Source of the DNA: a virus | DNA: 41,497 bases | Virus genome (UHGV): UHGV-0033333 | Strand: one strand, 5' to 3' | Part shown: one piece after another, positions 1 to 41,497 of the stretch | Layout of the letters: each line of letters opens with the position of its first letter | Numbering within the stretch: the first letter of the stretch is position 1 | Notes under the pieces: generated by a model | The model's input: the letters and a program-made list of their open reading frames with translations, nothing else | Told to the model about the DNA's origin: nothing | The model's database searches: none | Made by a program: the position numbers and the translations under genes

Positions 1-86
1 TTATTGATTATCGCAGTTGCAATGGGAGAAATAATAGCAGCAATTGCGAGGACAGCAGTAACTGTAATTGTTAGATCAATTTTCAC
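1..86 (-). CDS. 5' part of a membrane-protein gene that runs off the window start and continues in frame into 41191..41497 (gene spans the circular junction)
   Basis: Reverse complement of 84-100 gives AAAGGAG-7nt-GTG. ORF is open from 86 down to position 1 with no stop (VKIDLTITVTAVLAIAAIISPIATAIIN...). Codon phase matches ORF 41191..41472 if base 41497 is joined to base 1. Confidence 0.4.
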   Translation of the reverse strand, partial: MKIDLTITVTAVLAIAAIISPIATAIIN

Positions 87-103
87 AAGAAAACTCCTTT
101 CAT

Positions 104-195
104 AGTACTCGGACATGGCAGTGTCCTGTAACAAAAGAATAGGAGCGGAGGAAAAGAAAGTCAATATTTTTGTCAAAACAGAAGGAGGCGAGTTG
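104..195. promoter_or_regulatory. Conserved bidirectional cassette copy A: minus-strand promoter (-35 TTGACT 164-159, 17-nt spacer, -10 TATTCT 141-136), GGACAtggcagTGTCC palindrome 111-126, plus + strand RBS GAAGGAGGCGAG
   Basis: About 95% identical to 40318-40415 and clearly related to 39600-39693 and 40796-40866. Read directly from sequence. Confidence 0.55.
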
Positions 196-3161: not shown

Positions 3162-5275
3162 AGAAAAAAGAGATTGAAGGGATACCTTACCTGAAACTGA
3201 CTGCATTGAGCCAGAAGAAAGAAGCAAAGTATATCGGTGTGACTGCACTGAAAACAGTCGGCCATGAACAGCATTTTTTCCTGGAAGTATACCGGAATGA
3301 GGAAAACGCAAGGGATATCCCGGTGGTTCGCATTGTAACCACAAAGAAAGATTTTGGATCCTATTTTCCGGAAGAAGAAAAATGGACAAGACAGAAAATA
3401 CAGCCAGGCGGGGAATGTGAAAAACTGATCTGGTACAGCCGGGAAGATTCCGGGGGCTATTCTGGAATGCCAGAGAAAAATATCCTCCAGGGAGAAGAAG
3501 ACCTTGCACGGCTGAAAGCTTTTTATAAAGTTGCGCTCTGGAATGAAAAGCGGTGGTGGGAATATATCCTGAAACAGCAGGAAAACATTGTATGGACTGC
3601 CAGACGCAATGCAGAACAAAGAAAATATGAGCGCCGTCAGGAAGCACTTAATGAACGGATCCGGAATACAAAGAAACTACCGGAAAAAGCAATCCTGAAA
3701 AGGGCAGAAAAAACCAGCCTGGGGCGGACACACTATCTGTATTACAAAAAACACGGCAGCAGGGTACAGATTGCCTGCAGTAAATGCGGCGGGGTCATTG
3801 ATGCGAGATGGAGGCCGGGGGAATCATATGAAAGCCAGATCCAGAGCTGTATAGCCGAGCCGAAAGAAAGCCGGACAGGAACCTGCCCTATGTGTGGGAT
3901 ACAGGGAATCTATAAATGCCAGGGAAAAGTTAAAAGCAGCCATGGAAAAAGTATGTATATGTTCCTGGGACAGAAATACAAAGAAAAAGGAATGGTCGTT
4001 CGGTATCTGAAAATAGAAAAAGACTGGCATCTGGAACTGTGTCCTGGAGATAAAAGGCAGGAGATGCATGGCGCTTATGAAGAACTGTCTGGAGTTGAAA
4101 TTGCAAGGGTATATTTTGAACCGGGAAAAGAAATCCAGAAAGATTACCACAAGCGCAGCTGGTGTTCCGGGGAAGACTTCTGGGATGACTGCAACCTGTA
4201 TGGAACAGCCAATATTACGATCAATGCAGCACCGGTTATGGAAGAAACCTTTGAAGAGATAAAAGGAACCATCTTCCAGTACAGTGCGTTAAAAGAATAT
4301 GCGGCAGCAGTTGAAAATATAGACCTGGTTGAATATTTGAAAAAATATCAGAAAATGCCACAGATTGAATTTCTTGCAAAGGCTGGAATGACCGGAGTTA
4401 TACAGGAACTGCTTAATAACAATGAGAGTATTATCAAAAATAAAAATGCAAAAAACATAGATGGATTCCTGGGGATCAGGAGGGAAAGAGTGAAATACCT
4501 GGCTTCCAGAAATGGAAATCTGGATCTTTTAAAAGCAATGCAGGCAGAAAGAACACTGCAGAAAACGTGGACGGAGGAACAGCTGGAACAGCTGGCCGAA
4601 GCACACATGGACAAAAACAGGATCGGAATAGCAGCCAGGTATATGGGAATCCAGAAACTATTGAACCGGATCAAAAAGTATGCAGGCTGTGAATACGGTA
4701 CAGGCTGTAAAGCAGCAGGAGAGCGGATAAGACAGACAGCGATCACTTACACAGATTACCTGGGAATGAGGCTTTCCCTTGGTTACGATCTTAATAACAC
4801 GGTATACCAGTACCCTCGAGACCTTCAGGCAGAACATGACAGAATGATCTATGAAATGAACAAAGAAAAAATGGATAGACGTTTTGAAGAGGTAAAAAGG
4901 GCATATCCGGATATCAGGAAGAATTACCGTGATCTCCGGGAACGGTATTTTTATGAAGATGATATCTATCTGATCCGTCCGGCCAGATCCGCAGAGGAGA
5001 TCGTGGCAGAGGGAAGGATACTCCATCACTGTGTCGGAAGGGACTGTTATCTGAAAAAACATAATGATGGGAACAGTTTTATCCTGATGCTGCGGTTTAA
5101 AGATAGAGCAGAAACCCCGTACATTACTGTGGAGATTGACGGCTCAAAGCCACATATCATGCAGTGGTATGGATCACATGACAGAAAACCTGATGCAAAA
5201 AACATTCGGAAATGGCTGGACCAGTATATAGCCAGATTAAAGAAGAAACGGTCACTGCTGGCAAAAACTGCCTGA
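3158..5275 (+). CDS. PcfJ-like protein (705 aa) with zinc-ribbon cysteines
   Basis: C-terminal ILHHCVGRDCYLKKH...ITVEIDG motif; CxxC...CPMC cluster in the middle. The PcfK/PcfJ pairing recurs in Firmicutes plasmids and phages. Confidence 0.45.
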   Translation: MKKKEIEGIPYLKLTALSQKKEAKYIGVTALKTVGHEQHFFLEVYRNEENARDIPVVRIVTTKKDFGSYFPEEEKWTRQKIQPGGECEKLIWYSREDSGGYSGMPEKNILQGEEDLARLKAFYKVALWNEKRWWEYILKQQENIVWTARRNAEQRKYERRQEALNERIRNTKKLPEKAILKRAEKTSLGRTHYLYYKKHGSRVQIACSKCGGVIDARWRPGESYESQIQSCIAEPKESRTGTCPMCGIQGIYKCQGKVKSSHGKSMYMFLGQKYKEKGMVVRYLKIEKDWHLELCPGDKRQEMHGAYEELSGVEIARVYFEPGKEIQKDYHKRSWCSGEDFWDDCNLYGTANITINAAPVMEETFEEIKGTIFQYSALKEYAAAVENIDLVEYLKKYQKMPQIEFLAKAGMTGVIQELLNNNESIIKNKNAKNIDGFLGIRRERVKYLASRNGNLDLLKAMQAERTLQKTWTEEQLEQLAEAHMDKNRIGIAARYMGIQKLLNRIKKYAGCEYGTGCKAAGERIRQTAITYTDYLGMRLSLGYDLNNTVYQYPRDLQAEHDRMIYEMNKEKMDRRFEEVKRAYPDIRKNYRDLRERYFYEDDIYLIRPARSAEEIVAEGRILHHCVGRDCYLKKHNDGNSFILMLRFKDRAETPYITVEIDGSKPHIMQWYGSHDRKPDAKNIRKWLDQYIARLKKKRSLLAKTA

Positions 5276-28720: not shown

Positions 28721-31141
28721 ATGGCAGTAAAGGCCAAAGCTGAGATAACCATCTCAAGAATTATAGACATTGATAAGACAACACGGTATTACCTATTACA
28801 ATCATCAACTATAGCGGCTCCGTCTAAACCAACAGATGGGGCTGCTATTGGTTCTAACTGGAGTAAGACCGAGCCATCGTATTCGTCAGGGTCCACCAGT
28901 ACATTATATTTTGTTGATCAGACAGTGTATTCCAACGGTGTTATCAAGTATTCTGAAGTATCCAAATCATCAAGCTATGAAGCAGCAAAAGAGGCATGGA
29001 ACAAAGCTAATAGTGCGCAGAATTCAGCCACCAATGCAAATAATAAGATTGATCGAGGATTGAACAGATGGGCAATTCAGCAGTTCCCACAATCAGATCC
29101 GACTAAATCAACGATTGATTTAATAGTTGGATTAAATGCTGTCGGCGCATACGATTATGCAGATTCTGATCTCAACATTTCAAACATGGGGATATTGCTA
29201 GCTGATCATTACATTGGTTATGCAGTGACAAAAGTAAAATTTACAGAAACAGTCGACGTTGATATGTCTTTCATATCTGACGATGGAGCTACCGTGTATT
29301 TAAATGGTGTTCAAGCAGTACATAATGAGGCATATACGTCAACTGCAGAAGCTACAACGTTCGCTTTCAAGAAGGGCTGGAATGTAATAGAAGTAGTATG
29401 GAACGAAGGCGTTGGCGGCGATGGATTTAAATTTACCCCAAGCATATCGTCAAATGAGAAATGTGAACGAATGGATTGCTATTTAGATGTATGCACGGCT
29501 GAGACAGCTTACAAAAAAGTTTCTTCCGTGCTCACCGTTCAGAATGAATATTACCTCTCTTCCTCAGCGACTGCTTTATCTGGCGGGGCATGGTCTACGA
29601 CAGCGCCTACGTGGGTAAATGGAATGTATATGTGGCAGCGAACCGTTAAGGTGGACGGAGCCGGCAATAAGACATATACACCAGATCAAAATGGAGTATG
29701 TATTGCCGGAGCTAAAGGCGAAACGGGAGCTACTGGAGCTCAGGGACCCCAGGGTGTTAAAGGCGAGACTGGAGCTCAGGGACCCCAAGGAGAAAAAGGA
29801 GCTACTGGTGCAACGGGTTCTCAAGGCCCTCAAGGTGAAAAGGGTGCAACGGGAGCAACAGGTCCCCAGGGTCCACAAGGAGAAAAAGGTAGTACTGGTC
29901 CTCAAGGCCCAACCGGACCGCAAGGCCCAACGGGTAACGGCATATCATCTACCGCCATCACATACCAGCTCTGTGCATCTCAGACAACTCCTCCAACAGG
30001 AGAGTGGTTGAGTTCACCGCCCAAAACAGATCTTATTAAGCCATATCTCTGGACTCGAACCGTCATATCCTACACCAATGGGACAAGCTCAACGTCATAC
30101 AGTGTAAGCAGCACGTTCGACAGCCTGCAGATCGGTGGAAAGAATTTGATCCAACAAAGTACCTTTACAACATCTGATGACAATGACAAAAAGAATTGGA
30201 ATTTGTCGTTTGGAAACAACTTTACTGAATGGACATATACCGACCAGGGGTTGCATTTTATTACGAATACAGATGGGGTTGTCGATTCTAATTGTTGTGG
30301 ACCACGTATAAAAAGAAAAACGATGGGATATAAAACTGGTGACACCTTAACATTTTCAGCGGAAGTTAAGGGCACGGTAGGAACGGGCCAACCATTAATG
30401 CAATATTGGGCAACGACCAAAGATTCTAATAATTATTGGAGTAGACGTGTTTTTGGGGAATCGTTGAAGAATGTAAAAATAGATACGTGGACTAGATTAT
30501 CTGTGACAGTCGTATTAGATGATCTTAATAGTGATGACGAATGTGATTATTTCTTTATTGGTGCTGCGTTTAACTCAGATATATATATACGCAATCTCAA
30601 ACTCGAAATCGGCAACATCGCTACAGACTGGACGCCAGCTCCAGAAGATTTCCAGTCCGACCTGTCCAATTTATCCGGGAGAGTCACAGATGCCGAAACC
30701 AATATAAGCAATAACTCTCAGCAGATCCAGCTTCAGGCAACTCAGACAGAGGTATTGGCCGATAACTTGAATGTCTATATGGATAAGACCAACACGTTTA
30801 CTGGTGATGTAAATAGTTGGCGAATGACATGGGAAAAGCTTATTCGTACCGCAGAAGCCGACGTAGCTAACCATCAGGATTACATTACATTTCAAAATGG
30901 AGATATTATCCTTGGGGAATCAGCAAGTAATCTTAAGCTGAAGATTGCAAATGACTCTATTCAGTTCAAAGGCACCGACGATGTTGAAGTAACGCCAGAT
31001 GCAGACGCAACAGCTTGGATCACGGGTCAGAAATTCAATATCAACGAAGGTGAAGTTCATAAAGCGTTCCGGGTAGGACATCTGCAGTTCTTACCAAGAC
31101 CAAATGGAAACTTCGCAATAAGCATTATAGAGGAGGGATGA
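28721..31141 (+). CDS. Tail fibre protein 2: PA14-like domain, collagen-like GXY tract, CBM-like domain
   Basis: [14 protein letters not shown] (PA14-like). About 25 uninterrupted G-X-Y triplets. The YLWTRT...Y.NG module flanks the collagen tract. Confidence 0.7.
29706..29940 (+). repeat. Collagen-like tandem nucleotide repeats (GXY tract) inside fibre gene 2
   Basis: Repeating ggagctactgg / caaggccc units encoding [16 protein letters not shown]...[10 protein letters not shown]. Confidence 0.8.
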
Positions 31142-35547: not shown

Positions 35548-35827
35548 TTGTCTACCATTTGTCTACCGTAGACAGAAATTCATATAATATAACAGGAAAT
35601 CACAGAACACGAAAACAAACATAAAACACCGATAAATGTTGATTTTAAAGCATTTTTAGGGTACAATAAAAAACCGTAGAATGCATAAAATTAACAAAAA
35701 CCTTTAAATGAAGTACATGGAAACGCTTGAATACTGATGCCGTATTTTAGCGGAATACAGGCATTTCGGACAATTAAATAATGAGGTTTGTCTACAAATT
35801 GTCTACCGTTTTTTCAGCGGTAGACAA
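35548..35827. other. Candidate attP: two clusters of TTGTCTACC integrase-type repeats flanking an AT-rich core
   Basis: TTGTCTACC at 35548-35556, 35559-35567 (with palindrome TGTCTACcGTAGACA), 35788-35796 (TTGTCTACA) and 35799-35807, plus inverted copy CGGTAGACAA at 35818-35827 overlapping the int stop. Confidence 0.45.
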
Positions 35828-37040
35828 TTTTTGCTGTAGCTGCTTCAAAAAGTTCCACTGCCTGGTTCTGCATTTTCTCCGTATTGGTTATGTAACGTTC
35901 GATGGTTGTCTTGATATTCTTATGGCCCAGGCGCTCCATGATTGCCTTAGGAGAAGCTCCGCTTTCTGCCAGAATAGTTCCATGTGTATGTCTCAGACAG
36001 TGTGCATGGAAATTTTCATAACCAAGCTTTTTCTTTATAATCCGGACACAATATTTCATGCTTTCATTATTTAACATTTCTCCATTTTCTTTTGCGATAG
36101 GCCATACTTCCGTATATCCTTCAGGAGCATTCTGATTAGCAGGAAGCCAGTGCAGATAAGATCTCTGGTCCACGTAAGTCTTTGTGTAATATTCTCCATA
36201 ACGTAACCGGTTCATTTTCATAACAGTAAGCTCTGACTTCAATAAGGATTCCAGAGTAGCACCGATTTTGATGGTGCGGAAGGAATCATATTTGGGGTTC
36301 TTGTAATACCATTTCTTATCCAGGTCTTTCTGCAGCTGTCTCTTTACTGAAAGAGTATGATTTTTAAAATCAATGTCGTGCATCAGATCAAGACCAAAAC
36401 ATTCCCCGATCCGCAGTCCGGTATAATAACAGATCATCAGAGGTAGATAGTAGTGCGTGCCATTAAAATGATTACGGATATCCTCCCACTCTTTTCCTAC
36501 ACAGACATATTCCATATGCGCCTTTGTTTCCGGATTAACCGCAACCTTTGGTACTAGGGTGAGTGAGCAGGGATTAGTCTTCAGGTACTGACAGGGATAT
36601 ATGGCGTATTTCAACGCACCGGACAAAATGCCACGGAAGTTAGCCATGCTCTGTGCAGAGAGGTCTTTTTCGTTCTTGAGACTGTCAATCCATTGCTGAA
36701 TGGCAGCAGGCGTAAGTGAGGCAAGCTTATAATGTCCAAGAGCCGGTTTGATATGTAGCTTGATAGCCGATTCATAGGCATCATAGGTATTGTCTGTACA
36801 GTTGGTTTTTACATAGCTCTGCATCCAGAAATCCAGATAATCAGACAGCGACATCTCAGATGGCCGAAACACAGTTCCTGCATTGTCATATTCAGCCTTT
36901 GCTTTAGTTCCTGCAGCAATAGCATCTGCCTTTGTCCGGAAGCCTCCTTTTGAAATAGATTTCCGTTTCCCGTCTACTCTGGCACATTCAAAACTGTATT
37001 CCCATGATTTTCCACGTTTTTTGGTTCTTAATTCGCCCAT
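35814..37040 (-). CDS. int: Tyrosine integrase
   Basis: HCLRHTHGT...LGHKNIKTTIERYIT catalytic region. RBS AAGGAAGGTGA precedes ATG at 37040 (MGELRTKKRGKSWEY...). Confidence 0.85.
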   Translation of the reverse strand: MGELRTKKRGKSWEYSFECARVDGKRKSISKGGFRTKADAIAAGTKAKAEYDNAGTVFRPSEMSLSDYLDFWMQSYVKTNCTDNTYDAYESAIKLHIKPALGHYKLASLTPAAIQQWIDSLKNEKDLSAQSMANFRGILSGALKYAIYPCQYLKTNPCSLTLVPKVAVNPETKAHMEYVCVGKEWEDIRNHFNGTHYYLPLMICYYTGLRIGECFGLDLMHDIDFKNHTLSVKRQLQKDLDKKWYYKNPKYDSFRTIKIGATLESLLKSELTVMKMNRLRYGEYYTKTYVDQRSYLHWLPANQNAPEGYTEVWPIAKENGEMLNNESMKYCVRIIKKKLGYENFHAHCLRHTHGTILAESGASPKAIMERLGHKNIKTTIERYITNTEKMQNQAVELFEAATAKIVYR

Positions 37041-37204
37041 AATATCACCTTCCTTTTTAAAATTGGGTACAAAAATAACAGCCACACAGATGTTCTGGTT
37101 GTGCGTCTGCTCCGAAGATGATACAATAATTCTTGCAAAATGAGCATCTCTTCGGAGATCTGAATCGTCCTGGTGCGCCAACACTGGGGCGATTTTTTAT
37201 AAGT

Positions 37205-37758: not shown

Positions 37759-38196
37759 TTAGTCTGATAATTTGAGTTGCAAAAGTTTCTGGTGATATCC
37801 AGTCATTCTGGATATCTGTTCAATAGTAAATTCTCTGTATTCCTCAAAGAATGAATCAGGAAGCAGTAATTCCATAGCAAATTTGTTGGCTTCGATTTCC
37901 TTCTTGGAATTTAACAAAAGTGTTTTGTTACGGATAAAATAACAATTTTCCTTCCGGTGCAGGATAGCATGTCCGAGTTCATGAGCCATGACCAGACGCA
38001 TCTCATGTTCCGGAAGATTCTGATTGATAAATATGTAGCGGTGATTTTTCAGGAACATATAACAGCCTTCAAATTGCAGATCACATATCTGGTATAAAAC
38101 ACCAAGCTGATCAGCAATAGCAAAAGGATCTGATGTTCCTGTTTTTCTTTTGTAGTAAGAAACAATCTTCTTGATATTACGATTCAAGTAATTCAC
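37759..38196 (-). CDS. ImmA/IrrE-family metallopeptidase (anti-repressor protease)
   Basis: HELGHAILH (HEXXH) motif; directly downstream of the XRE repressor. Confidence 0.8.
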   Translation of the reverse strand: MNYLNRNIKKIVSYYKRKTGTSDPFAIADQLGVLYQICDLQFEGCYMFLKNHRYIFINQNLPEHEMRLVMAHELGHAILHRKENCYFIRNKTLLLNSKKEIEANKFAMELLLPDSFFEEYREFTIEQISRMTGYHQKLLQLKLSD

Positions 38197-38610
38197 CTAC
38201 TCTTTGTATTTCTTAGGAGTGTACTTTTCTTTGTTAATGATCTTTAATCTCTTTAAAGCAATTTCCAGTTCATCACGGAAGAGCTCTGCAGCTTCCGGAC
38301 TCAATTCCTCACCATTATAACTTGCAGGTCCATCTTCGCCAGAGGTGAGCTTTTCCATGATGTTGTCCAGATCTTTTGAAATATCTTTATTATCTTTTTC
38401 AGATAAACCGTCTGCGTCAATTCCTTTTAATAGGTAATCAGTACTCACATCAAAATAGTTTGCAATTAACAAGAGTTTTTCTGCGCTTGGATTAGGATTC
38501 GATTTCCATTTTGAAATAGTACCCTTTCCAAACCCTAATTCTTTTTCTAAATCGGATTGGTTGATTCCTTTTTTATCACAAAGAGAGATTACTCTGTTGA
38601 ATAAATTCAT
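38197..38610 (-). CDS. XRE-family HTH repressor (ImmR/CI-like)
   Basis: N-terminal HTH (QSDLEKELGFGKGTISKWKSN); acidic linker; divergent from cro. Confidence 0.8.
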   Translation of the reverse strand: MNLFNRVISLCDKKGINQSDLEKELGFGKGTISKWKSNPNPSAEKLLLIANYFDVSTDYLLKGIDADGLSEKDNKDISKDLDNIMEKLTSGEDGPASYNGEELSPEAAELFRDELEIALKRLKIINKEKYTPKKYKE

Positions 38611-38643
38611 ATCAGTCCTTTCTGAAAAAATTCAACAAAAGGC

Positions 38644-38672
38644 TTGACAAATGATGAATATATTCATATAAT
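38644..38672 (+). promoter_or_regulatory. Rightward PR-like promoter TTGACA-17-TATAAT with 14-bp perfect palindromic operator ATGAATATATTCAT (38654-38667) in the spacer
   Basis: Exact consensus hexamers and spacing. Imperfect operator copies TGAATAAATTCA (38686-38697) and TGAATATTTTCA (38789-38800). Confidence 0.55.
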
Positions 38673-38750
38673 CATATCTAACAGATGAATAAATTCAACA
38701 AAAACCTTGTAAGATGAATTATTTCAATTTAAATTTGTTTGGTTACAGAT

Positions 38751-38779
38751 ATAATAGAATATTTTCATCGGAAAGTCAA
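38751..38779 (-). promoter_or_regulatory. Leftward promoter TTGACT-17-TATTAT toward immR, face-to-face with PR
   Basis: AGTCAA at 38774-38779 and ATAATA at 38751-38756 on the + strand; same GAAAGTCAATAT context as cassettes A-C. Confidence 0.45.
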
Positions 38780-38803
38780 TATAAATGTTGAATATTTTCA
38801 TCT

Positions 38804-39022
38804 ATGAAAGGAGGAACGAAGGTGATTTATGACAATATCCGAGCAATCTGCGATAAGAAAAATATTTCTATTAAGCAGGTGGAAAGAGAACTGGGGTTTT
38901 CAAACTCAAGTATTTGCAAATGGAATGAATGTGAGCCGAGTGTTTGGAAGGTGCAGAAAGTAGCAGATTATCTTGGTGTATCTATGGAATATCTGTTATC
39001 AGACCAGAAGGAGGCAAGTTGA
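38804..39022 (+). CDS. Cro-like XRE HTH protein
   Basis: IKQVERELGFSNSSICKWN. Likely real start is GTG 38822 (AAAGGAGG + 7 nt). Confidence 0.65.
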   Translation: MKGGTKVIYDNIRAICDKKNISIKQVERELGFSNSSICKWNECEPSVWKVQKVADYLGVSMEYLLSDQKEAS

Positions 39023-39023
39023 A

Positions 39024-39212
39024 GTGCGAGAATGGATTGTACTGATTATAGCAGTAGTTTCTGTTATCCAATGGATTAAATGGAAAATCACTGCACAGGC
39101 ATTAATTTATTATAACGAGAAAAACCAATACAAACATCCCGGAAAAACAGAAATGGGAGAGTGCATTGGCTTTGTCGTGGAAAACACCATCAAAGATTTA
39201 ATTGGCCGTTGA
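39024..39212 (+). CDS. 62-aa small membrane protein after cro
   Basis: GAAGGAGG lies 9 nt before GTG 39024. N-terminal TM helix WIVLIIAVVSVIQWIKW. Confidence 0.35.
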   Translation: MREWIVLIIAVVSVIQWIKWKITAQALIYYNEKNQYKHPGKTEMGECIGFVVENTIKDLIGR

Positions 39213-39585
39213 CCATCTGAGTAAGAACGGAAGCTGCAATCTGCGATATTACATTCAGAGAAAAAGAACCTACGTTTCCACTGATCTTTTTGACTTTTTC
39301 CCAAACAGTGTCAGAACGCACGCTTTCAAGAAATTGATAGCCAGTGTATGTAATGCGGTACACATCAAGAGCAACGATTGCATCATCTCCGTCATTTCGG
39401 TAACAAACGATGAAACCTGCATCGTCAAGCACGAGTAATGTGTTGGCGATTTCTTCAATGGAAAAATTAATTTTTCCGGGAAGATCAAAAACGCTGATTT
39501 CATTAATTTCCAGATCTGAATTCATAGTGAGATTTTCTTCCAGATAAAGCATAACAGTACGAATGCATTCGGGGTTAAGTTTCAT
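39190..39585 (-). CDS. Hypothetical 131-aa protein (YjcQ-like winged-helix?, tentative)
   Basis: Driven by cassette B promoter; RBS AAAGGAG 6 nt before ATG. Confidence 0.5.
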   Translation of the reverse strand: MKLNPECIRTVMLYLEENLTMNSDLEINEISVFDLPGKINFSIEEIANTLLVLDDAGFIVCYRNDGDDAIVALDVYRITYTGYQFLESVRSDTVWEKVKKISGNVGSFSLNVISQIAASVLTQMVNGQLNL

Positions 39586-39599
39586 TTTGTTCTCCTTTC

Positions 39600-39693
39600 T
39601 TTTATTCAGACATGGCGGTGTCTCGTAATAAAAGAATAGGAGCGTAGTAGCAGAAAGTCAATATTTTTTATCAGACAAGAAGGAGGCGAGCTA
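39600..39693. promoter_or_regulatory. Conserved bidirectional cassette copy B
   Basis: AGACAtggcggTGTCT (39608-39623, covarying stem); -10 TATTCT (39638-39633); -35 TTGACT (39661-39656); + strand RBS GAAGGAGGCGAG. Confidence 0.55.
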
Positions 39694-40050
39694 ATGTTTT
39701 TTCGAAAAAAGAAAACAGAACCTAGCACCAGGCAATACCCACCAGCATTTAATGATGATCCACCATGTTTACATGTCACAACCGACTACGCAGATAATAA
39801 GATTTTTTCCCGAGAGTTACATATCGCTTTATCGGACCGCGACTGGTGTGAATTTGTAAAACAAGATTTTTATCCTCAGTTAATTGAATGGGTTCGTCAT
39901 TTGGAAAATATCGAAATTCCACATAACATTGAAAAATACTACTCAGATACTGGCAGCATTTCGGTGGCTGACCAGATAAAATCAGCCGCCGAAATGGTGG
40001 GAAAAACAGGACTCAAGTGTGTTCCGGATTCTGTAATCCACCAGAAATAA
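39694..40050 (+). CDS. Hypothetical 118-aa protein
   Basis: ATG 7 nt after GGAGGCGAG; 3' end overlaps the convergent gene 40013..40300. Confidence 0.5.
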   Translation: MFFRKKKTEPSTRQYPPAFNDDPPCLHVTTDYADNKIFSRELHIALSDRDWCEFVKQDFYPQLIEWVRHLENIEIPHNIEKYYSDTGSISVADQIKSAAEMVGKTGLKCVPDSVIHQK

Positions 40051-40300
40051 CTTTGAAATTGGGCTTAATATCAGTCTTTTCTAAATCAATAATTCCATAG
40101 CTGTCAAGAAGCCGTAACGTAAGACCTGTTGCTAAAGAGACAGATGTGGTTGCGATTATAGAAGCAAGCTGAGATGAAATAACATTAATATCTTGGGAAA
40201 AATCAATTTGAGAAAGCATGGTCTCGATTTGCTTCGAATTAGAAGAAACCAGAGATAAGGTGTTATCCATAATAAATTGATTGAGTTCTTCAGATGTCAT
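40013..40300 (-). CDS. Hypothetical 95-aa protein
   Basis: Driven by cassette C promoter; 5' UTR carries the GGACAccaccaTGTCC hairpin. Confidence 0.5.
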   Translation of the reverse strand: MTSEELNQFIMDNTLSLVSSNSKQIETMLSQIDFSQDINVISSQLASIIATTSVSLATGLTLRLLDSYGIIDLEKTDIKPNFKVISGGLQNPEHT

Positions 40301-40317
40301 AAATTATCATATTCCTT

Positions 40318-40415
40318 TCGTAATATTCGGACATGGTGGTGTCCTGTAATACAAGAATAGGAGCGGAGGAAAAGAAAGTCAATATTTTTGTTAAAACAGA
40401 AGGAGGCGAGTTGAG
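40318..40415. promoter_or_regulatory. Conserved bidirectional cassette copy C (nearly identical to A)
   Basis: GGACAtggtggTGTCC (40329-40344); -10 TATTCT (40359-40354); -35 TTGACT (40382-40377); RBS GAAGGAGGCGAG. Confidence 0.55.
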
Positions 40416-40619
40416 ATGGAGTACAAGGAATGGGAAAAACAAAGAACTGCCGCACTGGAAGTATTCCGGGAATTTTTAAAAACACTTCCGAAAAAAGGCT
40501 TTACACTGCGGCAGATGGAAATGATCGGAAATGAAGCAAAAAATGAAGTTGAAAATGTCATTACCGATATTAAAGAAAAATTAGTGCTTACTGAAGATCT
40601 GACTGACCTTCTGAAATAG
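40416..40619 (+). CDS. Hypothetical 67-aa protein
   Basis: ATG follows GGAGGCGAGTTGAG; 3' overlap with the convergent minus-strand gene. Confidence 0.5.
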   Translation: MEYKEWEKQRTAALEVFREFLKTLPKKGFTLRQMEMIGNEAKNEVENVITDIKEKLVLTEDLTDLLK

Positions 40620-40773
40620 AATCACGGATTTTCTTCAGAAGTCTGCGATACAAAACAGCAAATTCAAAAGCATTATTTTCAGTAATTGCCTCACCACGAA
40701 GTTGATAGTCGTGAATTGCTGCCTGGATAGCGAGGTCATGAGCACGCTGTTCAATACTGATATCTTTGTACAT
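40588..40773 (-). CDS. Hypothetical 61-aa protein (start MYKDISIEQ...)
   Basis: AAAGGAG lies 8 nt before ATG 40773. The track's 40791 start lacks an RBS. Confidence 0.45.
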   Translation of the reverse strand: MYKDISIEQRAHDLAIQAAIHDYQLRGEAITENNAFEFAVLYRRLLKKIRDSISEGQSDLQ

Positions 40774-40795
40774 AAAAAAATCTCCTTTCATTTTA

Positions 40796-40866
40796 CTCGG
40801 ACATGGCAGTGCCCTGTAAGAAAAAGATAGGAGAATAATAAGTAAAAGTCAACCAGAACATAGCAA
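40796..40866. promoter_or_regulatory. Cassette copy D (diverged): GGACAtggcagTGCCC, -10 TATCTT, -35 TTGACT (40852-40847)
   Basis: Shares ACTCGGACATGGCAGTG with A and AAAAGTCAACCAGA with 35325-35340. Confidence 0.45.
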
Positions 40867-41063: not shown

Positions 41064-41228
41064 ATGACTAATTACATTATCTTGGCCAGTGTTTGGGTAG
41101 TTGCGCTGGTATGTTGGAGAATAATGAAAAAAATAGAACCTGAAATAGCAAGCGCTTATCTGGTATATGTCTTGATTATATGCATATTAGTTACAGCGTT
41201 TGGAGTAAGTTACTTATCTCAGGTTTAA
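41064..41228 (+). CDS. 54-aa two-TM membrane peptide (MTNYIILASVWVVALVCWRIMKK...)
   Basis: RBS AACAGGAGAAACA precedes ATG 41064. Confidence 0.4.
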   Translation: MTNYIILASVWVVALVCWRIMKKIEPEIASAYLVYVLIICILVTAFGVSYLSQV

Positions 41229-41497
41229 TTTGTTCAAGTAAAGCTGTGGCATTATCAAAATCTGAAATTATAATAGCAGAATTAATGTCAATCATAGTTT
41301 TGGCAAGATGATCAGGAGCGTAAGCAAGCGCGAGGAAATAATATTCACCGTAATCTTTTTGAGACGGACTGTCAGCATAGTGAATACATTTTCCTGTGTA
41401 TCTAAGGTACTTCTCAAAAATTGAACGAATGTAGTAAGTGGTATTTTCGAGATGCTTTTGTTCGAGTTCCATACGCTTAAGCTTAAGTTGATAACGA
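41191..41497 (-). CDS. 3' part of the junction-spanning gene (continues from 1..86); internal ATG at 41472
   Basis: Minus frame is open from 41497 to the stop at 41191. Codon phase is continuous with the window-start ORF when the ends are joined. Confidence 0.4.
   Translation of the reverse strand, partial: RYQLKLKRMELEQKHLENTTYYIRSIFEKYLRYTGKCIHYADSPSQKDYGEYYFLALAYAPDHLAKTMIDINSAIIISDFDNATALLEQIKPEISNLLQTL

Follow-up and report, generated by a model that had tools for sequence, protein, structure and literature searches.

A covarying leader hairpin in repeated promoter cassettes of temperate phages of gut Lachnospiraceae

5′-Terminal stem-loops, in concert with ribosome binding, stabilize mRNAs, as exemplified by ompA and by Bacillus subtilis aprE (reviewed in PMC3997798). 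Stem-loops are also coupled to promoters in phage genomes. Specifically, T4-type phages carry promoter-early stem-loops (PeSLs), in which the stem-loop is an effective terminator and the whole forms a promoter–terminator composite (PMC2839356, PMC4122927). Here, we consider a hairpin that resembles both systems in part. It lies in the virus genome UHGV-0033333, of which the whole analyzed stretch of 41,497 nt is called the window. A dyad of the type GGACA-N6-TGTCC occurs there at exactly four places, each inside a repeated cassette of ~100 bp. We propose, with a probability of about 55%, that the dyad is an RNA-level cis-element: the 5′-end stem-loop of leftward mRNAs, carried within a mobile promoter–leader cassette and likely serving 5′-end protection. 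The geometry is that of the known 5′-terminal stabilizers that act together with ribosome binding, and for this reason 5′-end protection is the function we favor.

The window reads as a circular or circularly permuted temperate phage genome in which one open reading frame (ORF) crosses from the end into the start. Because the window is circular, the four cassettes form a single array immediately to the right of cro. The hairpins are the following, with pairing given for the transcribed strand.

Copy A, 111..126, minus strand: GGACA-CUGCCA-UGUCC, −6.8 kcal/mol with flanks; dyad letters GGACAtggcagTGTCC.
Copy B, 39608..39623, minus strand: AGACA-CCGCCA-UGUCU, terminal pair A-U replacing G-C, −4.2 kcal/mol; dyad letters AGACAtggcggTGTCT.
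Copy C, 40329..40344, minus strand: GGACA-CCACCA-UGUCC; dyad letters GGACAtggtggTGTCC.
Copy D, 40799..40814, minus strand: GGGCA-CUGCCA-UGUCC, pair 3 a G-U wobble; dyad letters GGACAtggcagTGCCC.

These are the four places singled out by the first-pass annotation, and both a pattern count and a covariance model recover them. The pattern RGACA-N6-TGYCY yields 8 strand-hits in the window against 0.48 expected, a count reached in 0 of 100 shuffles; its sole further match, at 3873-3888, is not in any cassette. The covariance model, built from the homolog alignment presented below, recovers these four copies and no others, each on the minus strand. All four dyads are in register within a repeat family of ~102 nt with 62–92% identity. 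Copy A had been drawn as 104-126; the dyad proper occupies 111-126, and the other seven bases are flank. The left-arm G-to-A change of copy B does have its C-to-T partner in the right arm, as had been reported. The single mismatch assigned to copy D is a genuine departure on the plus strand, but the minus strand reads GGGCA...UGUCC, so the supposed mismatch becomes a G-U wobble upon transcription and the pair is intact. Folding of the four hairpins with short flanks gives −4.2 to −6.8 kcal/mol, a weak fold (−4 to −7 kcal/mol) with modest z-scores against shuffles. Taken alone, the one compensatory change seen in four copies carries little weight; the strength of the case comes from more than 100 homologous cassettes.

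Read along the minus strand, every cassette has the same order: a −35 box (TTGACT), 17 nt, a −10 box (TATTCT; TATCTT in copy D), 9 nt ending in TTACA, one arm of the 5-bp stem, the 6-nt loop, and the return arm. On the 3′ side of the stem come GAGUA (GAAUA in copies B and C), a short A-rich spacer, the SD GAAAGGAG, 7–9 nt, and the start codon; the SD begins about 10 nt after the hairpin ends. The parts lie as follows.

Cassette A, 89..164, minus strand: −35 TTGACT 164-159, −10 TATTCT 141-136, predicted +1 at A129, hairpin 126-111.
Cassette A, continued, minus strand: GAGUA 110-106, SD GAAAGGAG 101-94, GTG start at 86.
Cassette B, 39588..39661, minus strand: −35 39661-39656, −10 39638-39633, predicted +1 at 39626, SD 39599-39592, ATG 39585.
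Cassette C, 40307..40382, minus strand: −35 40382-40377, −10 40359-40354, predicted +1 at 40347, SD 40320-40313, ATG 40300.
Cassette D, 40777..40852, minus strand: −35 40852-40847, −10 TATCTT 40829-40824, predicted +1 at 40817, SD 40790-40783, ATG 40773.
Partial fifth cassette copy, 38988..39025, plus strand: the right-hand part, with the rightward ribosome site GAAGGAGGC, at the cro end; it has neither promoter nor dyad.

In 128 of 138 copies, 9 nt separate the −10 box from the stem, despite a variable spacer sequence. From promoter geometry, transcription is predicted to start at the first A of TTACA (129, 39626, 40347, and 40817) because the usual −10-to-start spacing is 7 nt, and the hairpin would then occupy about +4 to +19. 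By this reckoning, the position of +10 to +25 originally given for it is too far downstream. No T-run follows the dyad on either strand, and a terminator scan calls no intrinsic terminator at the cassettes. The partial fifth copy suggests that the rightward ORFs are cotranscribed from the cro promoter.

Three further candidates were rejected. Folding predicts an outer helix, UAC/GUA, around the hairpin, but this helix lacks covariation and its C-A mismatches are uncompensated; in the folding model, the same flank pairing could possibly serve as a 2-bp closure of the 5′ end. A small plus-strand ORF starting at a loop ATG (115-306, 40333-40479) has no SD, and its ATG is lost in homologs with other stems. 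Contig ends, considered as evidence for 5′ ends, proved uninformative: the same gene lies at seven contig places, and one end is 57 nt upstream. Separately, we note that the transcribed strand of the 17-nt spacer between −35 and −10 is rich in pyrimidines in almost every copy (142-158, 39639-39655, 40360-40376, and ~100 homologous cassettes); the other strand is purine-rich and contains GGAG-like runs.

Homologs were sought in IMG/VR and in one genome per GTDB species by a stem-blind scan. Specifically, the pattern ACTC-N5-TGGCAG-N5-TGTAA fixed the loop and flanks and left the 10 stem positions free, and hits were selected on context alone, namely a −10-like box 3–6 nt upstream and an SD downstream. 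The result was 109 distinct cassettes with 33 different stems from phages and prophages of Lachnospiraceae. Example stems are GGCAU/AUGCC, GGCUC/GAGCC, GGGCA/UGCCC, GGUCA/UGACC, and GACCU/AGGUC. Among the 545 pair cells of the 109 cassettes, 496 are Watson–Crick, 38 are G-U, 10 are A-C, and 1 is other. Hits lacking the promoter and SD context pair at chance level, and the filter missed only two real cassettes. A pattern based on the dyad also found true homologs, together with many matches that are a coding motif in unrelated genes; it was left out of the covariation analysis because it constrains the stem. The promoter-side pattern GAATAGGAGC-N10-GAAAGTCAAT has zero matches in viral contigs, and a looser version gave chance matches only.

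In an alignment of 105 cassettes, 98.1% of cells pair, compared to 69% in shuffles, and 150 cells are changed on both sides, figures that none of 500 shuffles attains. When the partner is slid by 1–3 columns, pairing drops to 14–42%. Covariance analysis across homologous phages had been put forward as the check on the dyad, and its outcome is that compensatory change keeps the pairing, which strongly supports the RNA hairpin of the two forms originally offered. Pairs 1 and 2 are almost always G-C, and pairs 3–5 are freely C-G, G-C, A-U, or U-A. Stem pairing, rather than stem sequence, is conserved. The opposite holds for the unpaired parts: in copies outside the ascertainment, conservation is at least 90% for the loop and flanks versus 40–50% for the inner stem and 40–60% for the linkers. 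The parts conserved to this degree are the loop C-Y-G-C-C-A and the flanks ACA/GAGUA (TACAGG and CCGAGUA when the basal stem is included). Applied to homologous loci, the covariance model finds extra copies in many of them, with the loop variants CCGCCA, CCACCA, CUGGCA, CUGCAA, UUGCAG, and UCGCAC. In a few copies, the stem measures 4 or 6 bp, or the loop 4 nt. Where genome records name a host, it mostly belongs to the Lachnospiraceae (Acetatifactor, Hungatella, Tyzzerella, and metagenome-assembled genomes, or MAGs), with one Butyricicoccus and another Eubacteriales MAG, and the motif-bearing records come from human, mouse, and goat gut. The hairpin is a real, widespread, and strongly covarying phage leader motif on the minus strand.

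Rfam 15 returned only chance-level eukaryotic matches (E ≥ 0.37), including in a 131-nt search centered on copy A. The cassette region has no DNA match among GenBank phages, and the literature on DUF2513 and on Lachnospiraceae prophage stem-loop promoters yielded no description of the motif. The motif is small, and its likeliest function would be a conventional one.

The alternative originally offered to the hairpin was a dyad-symmetric operator. The notion is that a dimeric regulator binds double-stranded DNA and represses all of the leftward promoters, with half-sites that have coevolved within each phage lineage. In keeping with this idea, the 16-bp palindrome overlaps +1 to +20 of the predicted start, a classical operator position; two copies in one phage share a stem more often (17 of 50 pairs identical) than do copies from different phages (7.7%); and the HTH_17 gene beside the cassette array is conserved in the closest relatives. 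However, the pattern of conservation is the reverse of what a dimeric site calls for: the half-sites are the least conserved part, and the nonpalindromic spacer and flanks are the most conserved. Moreover, 21 of the 50 within-phage copy pairs differ by a two-sided change, for example GGCCA/TGGCC together with GGGTA/TACCC, and arm spacing shifts in the copies with 4-bp or 6-bp stems or 4-nt loops. The immunity region points the same way. Between immR and cro (38595-38803), 6 or 7 palindromes TGAATAnATTCA (TGAATA-n-ATTCA) surround both a perfect rightward promoter (TTGACA-17-TATAAT, 38644-38672) and a leftward one. These palindromes are probably the ImmR/Cro operators, and the region contains no GGACA dyad; ImmR and Cro, nominated as candidate binders of the dyad in the first-pass annotation, are thus unlikely to be so. 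Mixed stems in one phage, variable stem length, and unrelated immunity operators together make a dimeric DNA operator a quite improbable explanation. As a side observation on the same region, its leftward promoter (38779-38751) shares ATATTGACTTTC with the −35 regions of the cassettes.

Departures from pairing also differ between the strands, which is a further point against a DNA site. The transcribed strand has 37–38 G-U departures versus 9–10 A-C (about 10 nonpairs), whereas the opposite strand across homologs has 9 G-U and 38 nonpairs. Most of the G-U excess comes from the terminal pair (26 vs 3; inner pairs 12 vs 7), and counted by distinct stems the excess is 14 vs 5 (p = 0.06); the asymmetry is thus supporting evidence only. 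The same counts bear on which strand functions. Conceivably, the rightward lytic transcript, or a sense–antisense pair, is the relevant molecule, and the hairpin is an intercistronic stabilizer or a kissing-loop entry site for antisense control. Copy A does fold slightly better as plus-strand RNA (−9.0 kcal/mol, with an extra U-G pair), cassettes A–C precede rightward ORFs with strong ribosome sites, and every module of the array is a convergent, 3′-overlapping gene pair. Yet copy D forms no hairpin on the plus strand, the 38 plus-strand nonpairs among homologs compare with 10 on the minus strand, and the register of the hairpin is fixed to the leftward −10 box and SD, not to any rightward signal. 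Every copy has its promoter and SD on the minus strand. We consider a function on the rightward or antisense RNA highly improbable.

The genes that surround and follow the cassettes are listed here.

Integrase, 35814-37184, minus strand.
ImmA-type protease, 37759-38196, minus strand.
XRE repressor, 38197-38610, minus strand.
Cro-like gene, 38804-39022, plus strand.
HTH_17 gene, 325-540, adjoining the cassette array.
Leftward gene behind cassette A, 1..86 (5′ part) and 41191..41497 (3′ part), minus strand: 130 aa, N-terminal hydrophobic segment, crosses the window end; no Pfam match.
Leftward gene behind cassette B, 39190..39585, minus strand: DUF2513, 131 aa (PF10711, E 1.9e-19).
Leftward gene behind cassette C, 40013..40300, minus strand: 95 aa; no family match.
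Leftward gene behind cassette D, 40588..40773, minus strand: 61 aa, no Pfam match; member of a small 'EQRAHDLAI' family also found behind the motif in other phages.

The modules between cassettes (39023-39585, 39694-40300, 40416-40773, and 41065-41497 plus 1-86) each contain one rightward and one leftward small ORF. The two ORFs of a module converge with a 3′ overlap of 23–38 nt, and no terminator was found between them. Two other sites in the window deserve mention. On the minus strand at 1100-1198, a strong terminator-like hairpin and its T-run (1134-1100) come within ~30 nt after a promoter-like site of the TG-extended type (1198-1170); the arrangement could produce a small RNA of ~60 nt or could stop leftward transcription entering the cassette array. 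An 806-aa ORF (28721-31141), probably a tail fiber, contains four tandem 36-nt repeats (29732-29884) that specify collagen-like G-X-Y triplets.

Across ~100 motif loci, gene orientation is consistent. Integrase genes lie on the motif strand in 15 cases and on the other strand in 0, the corresponding counts for ImmA are 16 and 0, and homologs of the early lytic genes of the window are all opposite to the motif strand (0/11, 0/24, and 0/9). This consistency shows that the motif drives genes in the lysogeny orientation, antisense within the early lytic region. The genes themselves are diverse: 150 motif copies are followed by 123 distinct proteins with a median length of 74 aa. A Pfam scan of 88 downstream proteins gave 8 DUF2513, 2 KTSC, 1 Abi_alpha, and 1 match to a TIR-like defense effector model, and the rest were mostly unmatched.

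Comparison with close relatives (L023, L083, and L087) reveals what the cassettes do to genome architecture. The immunity module (37784-39023) and the HTH_17 gene (309-548) are 78–90% identical among these phages. Between them, only cassettes of 70–120 bp align, and the genes that they flank differ. Thus, accessory genes are exchanged at cassette borders, and the cassettes are the conserved joints of swappable modules. The arrangement suggests that recombination at these joints passes modules from phage to phage.

DUF2513 and KTSC genes of Streptococcus and Solobacterium phages were considered as carriers of the motif and rejected: they have repeated promoters and no hairpin. Specifically, Streptococcus phage Javan240 and Solobacterium phage SMO_1P possess antisense DUF2513 and KTSC genes that lack the hairpin. 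Hence, such genes do not generally require it, and the hairpin is an addition specific to the Lachnospiraceae phage group. In Javan240, a promoter cassette, TTCCTTTCTAAATTTGGTATAAT, is repeated before two antisense accessory genes, again with no hairpin (L319 2440-2500 and 3420-3470), and the ORF pairs of this phage have the same convergent layout as the modules of the window (L319 2501-2995). Repeated promoter cassettes in front of lysogeny-oriented accessory genes may be general among Firmicute temperate phages.

The mechanism that we favor for the hairpin, 5′-end protection, can be pictured as follows. Temperate phages of gut Lachnospiraceae set a cassette of ~70–100 bp before many unrelated small accessory genes. 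The cassette supplies a sigma-A-type −35/−10 promoter, TTACA with the predicted start site, and then the hairpin and GAGUA, with a spacer rich in A leading to a strong SD. The genes behind it point the same way as those for integrase, ImmA, and repressor, antisense to the early lytic operon. Each leftward mRNA would carry, at about +4 to +19, a 5-bp stem (two G-C pairs at the base and three covarying pairs) capped by the 6-nt loop C-Y-G-C-C-A. With the predicted start, at most three 5′ nucleotides would remain unpaired, and possibly none if A+1 and C+2 pair with the G-U of GAGU, an arrangement that folding predicts and that covariation does not support. The hairpin could thereby shield the 5′ end from 5′-end-dependent decay (entry of the RppH, RNase J1, or RNase Y/E type), and hairpin plus strong ribosome site would yield stable, well-translated messages.

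The weak fold of the hairpin, and its absence from the comparable accessory genes of Javan240 and SMO_1P, count against the favored reading. A further observation speaks against a purely passive stabilizer: the conserved loop and the GAGUA flank are not needed by it. Because passive stabilization leaves this conservation unexplained, the main rival, or a second function, is an RNA operator. The hypothesis is that a common RNA-binding protein of host or phage reads the CYGCCA loop and GAGUA and thereby controls translation, by repression or activation, or decay of the full set of accessory mRNAs. Single-stranded parts conserved to at least 90% on a scaffold whose inner pairs vary are the classical signature of such reading, and with its end ~10 nt upstream of the SD, the hairpin lies within range of the 30S binding region. 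There is precedent as well, as HTH proteins bind 5′-UTR hairpins of phage counter-defense operons (PMC13551039). Finally, DUF2513, likely a winged-helix protein, is the commonest gene product behind the motif (8 of 88). DUF2513 fails as a universal partner, however, being present in only ~14 of 100 loci. Among ~100 motif loci, no phage protein co-occurs broadly apart from immunity and integration proteins (integrase, ImmA, and repressor), so a reader, if it exists, is more likely host-encoded. Nor is there an Aca-type layout, with the cognate regulator inside the operon, and an RNA operator does not demand a strictly fixed distance from the −10 box. An RNA operator as the chief role of the hairpin is therefore possible but, in our estimate, well short of an even bet. 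The shared regulator that the first-pass annotation envisaged is plausible because the loop and flanks are so conserved. A common factor may also read the hairpin in addition to the protection that we favor.

Extending the operator idea, the hairpin could be the cis-element of an undescribed posttranscriptional regulon, in which one factor, of host or phage, reads CYGCCA and GAGUA on dozens of unrelated prophage accessory mRNAs in gut Lachnospiraceae. We hold this idea tentatively, as a minority expectation. If correct, the whole gene set would be switched together, for example between lysogeny and induction, and the genes could function in defense or superinfection exclusion.

The fixed distance from the −10 box invites another interpretation: that RNA polymerase itself is the target of the nascent hairpin. 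Like HK022 put or lambda nut boxB, the hairpin could mediate promoter-proximal pausing, escape, or antitermination and let leftward transcription reach immR and int. The stem-loop is boxB-like in size, and with no terminator-like sites between cassettes, leftward transcripts could reach cro, immR, and int. Against this possibility, a boxA-like partner is absent, no N-like or Q-like gene lies beside the motif at ~100 loci, each promoter serves one small gene, and put elements are much larger and have two stems. We judge an action on polymerase improbable. To return to 5′-end protection, the observations on which it builds are a real minus-strand hairpin, a fixed −10 distance, diverse downstream genes, and cassettes bordering swapped modules; the start site, an effect on stability or translation, and any trans-acting factor are what we infer.

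Temperate phages of gut Lachnospiraceae are abundant in humans and animals, and their small accessory genes are almost entirely uncharacterized. A compact promoter–hairpin–SD cassette offers a handle on cargo expressed from prophages, including the candidate Abi_alpha and TIR-like proteins, and it is a cis-element for accessory-gene expression that is open to test. If a trans factor reads the loop, the motif would define a phage-wide posttranscriptional regulon. If there is none, the cassette is a natural, portable high-expression leader for Clostridia.

Finally, we compare the element with its closest known counterparts. Lambda-type nut boxB, an element of early phage leaders, resembles the hairpin here in its 5-bp stem and small conserved loop, and its stems covary between phages. 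Unlike lambda nut, the present loci have no boxA, no N-like protein near the motif (~100 loci), and no long terminator-containing operon, and the loop is the hexaloop CYGCCA, not a GNRA-like pentaloop. The C1 operators of phage P1 and the stoperators of mycobacteriophage L5 resemble the dyad in that many copies of one short site lie beside scattered phage promoters. Those are asymmetric double-stranded DNA sites with conserved sequence, whereas the arms here vary and covary, which indicates base pairing, not the reading of half-sites.

Control of anti-CRISPR genes by Aca1 and Aca2 provides a closer likeness: in accessory or counter-defense genes, promoter and ribosome site flank an inverted repeat, and a conserved leader RNA hairpin presents a motif common to several operons (PMC13551039). 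An Aca operon includes the gene for its HTH regulator; the genes behind the present motif are diverse, and among 88, 8 are DUF2513 and none is HTH_3-like or Aca-like. In its proposed mode of action, the element comes nearest to the 5′-terminal stabilizer hairpins. The leaders of Escherichia coli ompA and papA and of B. subtilis aprE share with the present leader a short hairpin near the 5′ end (predicted here) and a strong ribosome site next to it (PMC3997798). As in those stabilizers, there is no U-tract, and action would be in cis on a single message. Unlike them, the present element keeps the sequence of its loop and flanks in front of more than 100 unrelated genes and travels with its own promoter as a repeated cassette; stabilization itself belongs to our proposed mechanism.

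PeSLs, in turn, resemble the cassette as a whole. The hairpin here lacks the feature that defines a PeSL, a stem-loop that is a terminator: its place is within the leader, past the promoter, and no U-tract follows it. The phages are temperate, siphovirus-like, and of Firmicutes, with lysogeny-oriented cassette genes. Nonetheless, like PeSLs, these are small, repeated cassettes of a strong sigma-70-type promoter and a stem-loop, set among small nonessential genes of variable regions (PMC2839356, PMC4122927). PeSL cassettes mark the borders of gene replacements between related phages, and the cassettes here do so with respect to L023, L083, and L087. As for the repeated cassette, the window has four copies with 62–92% identity and TTGACT-17-TATTCT promoters, and 123 distinct small genes lie downstream of the motif copies.
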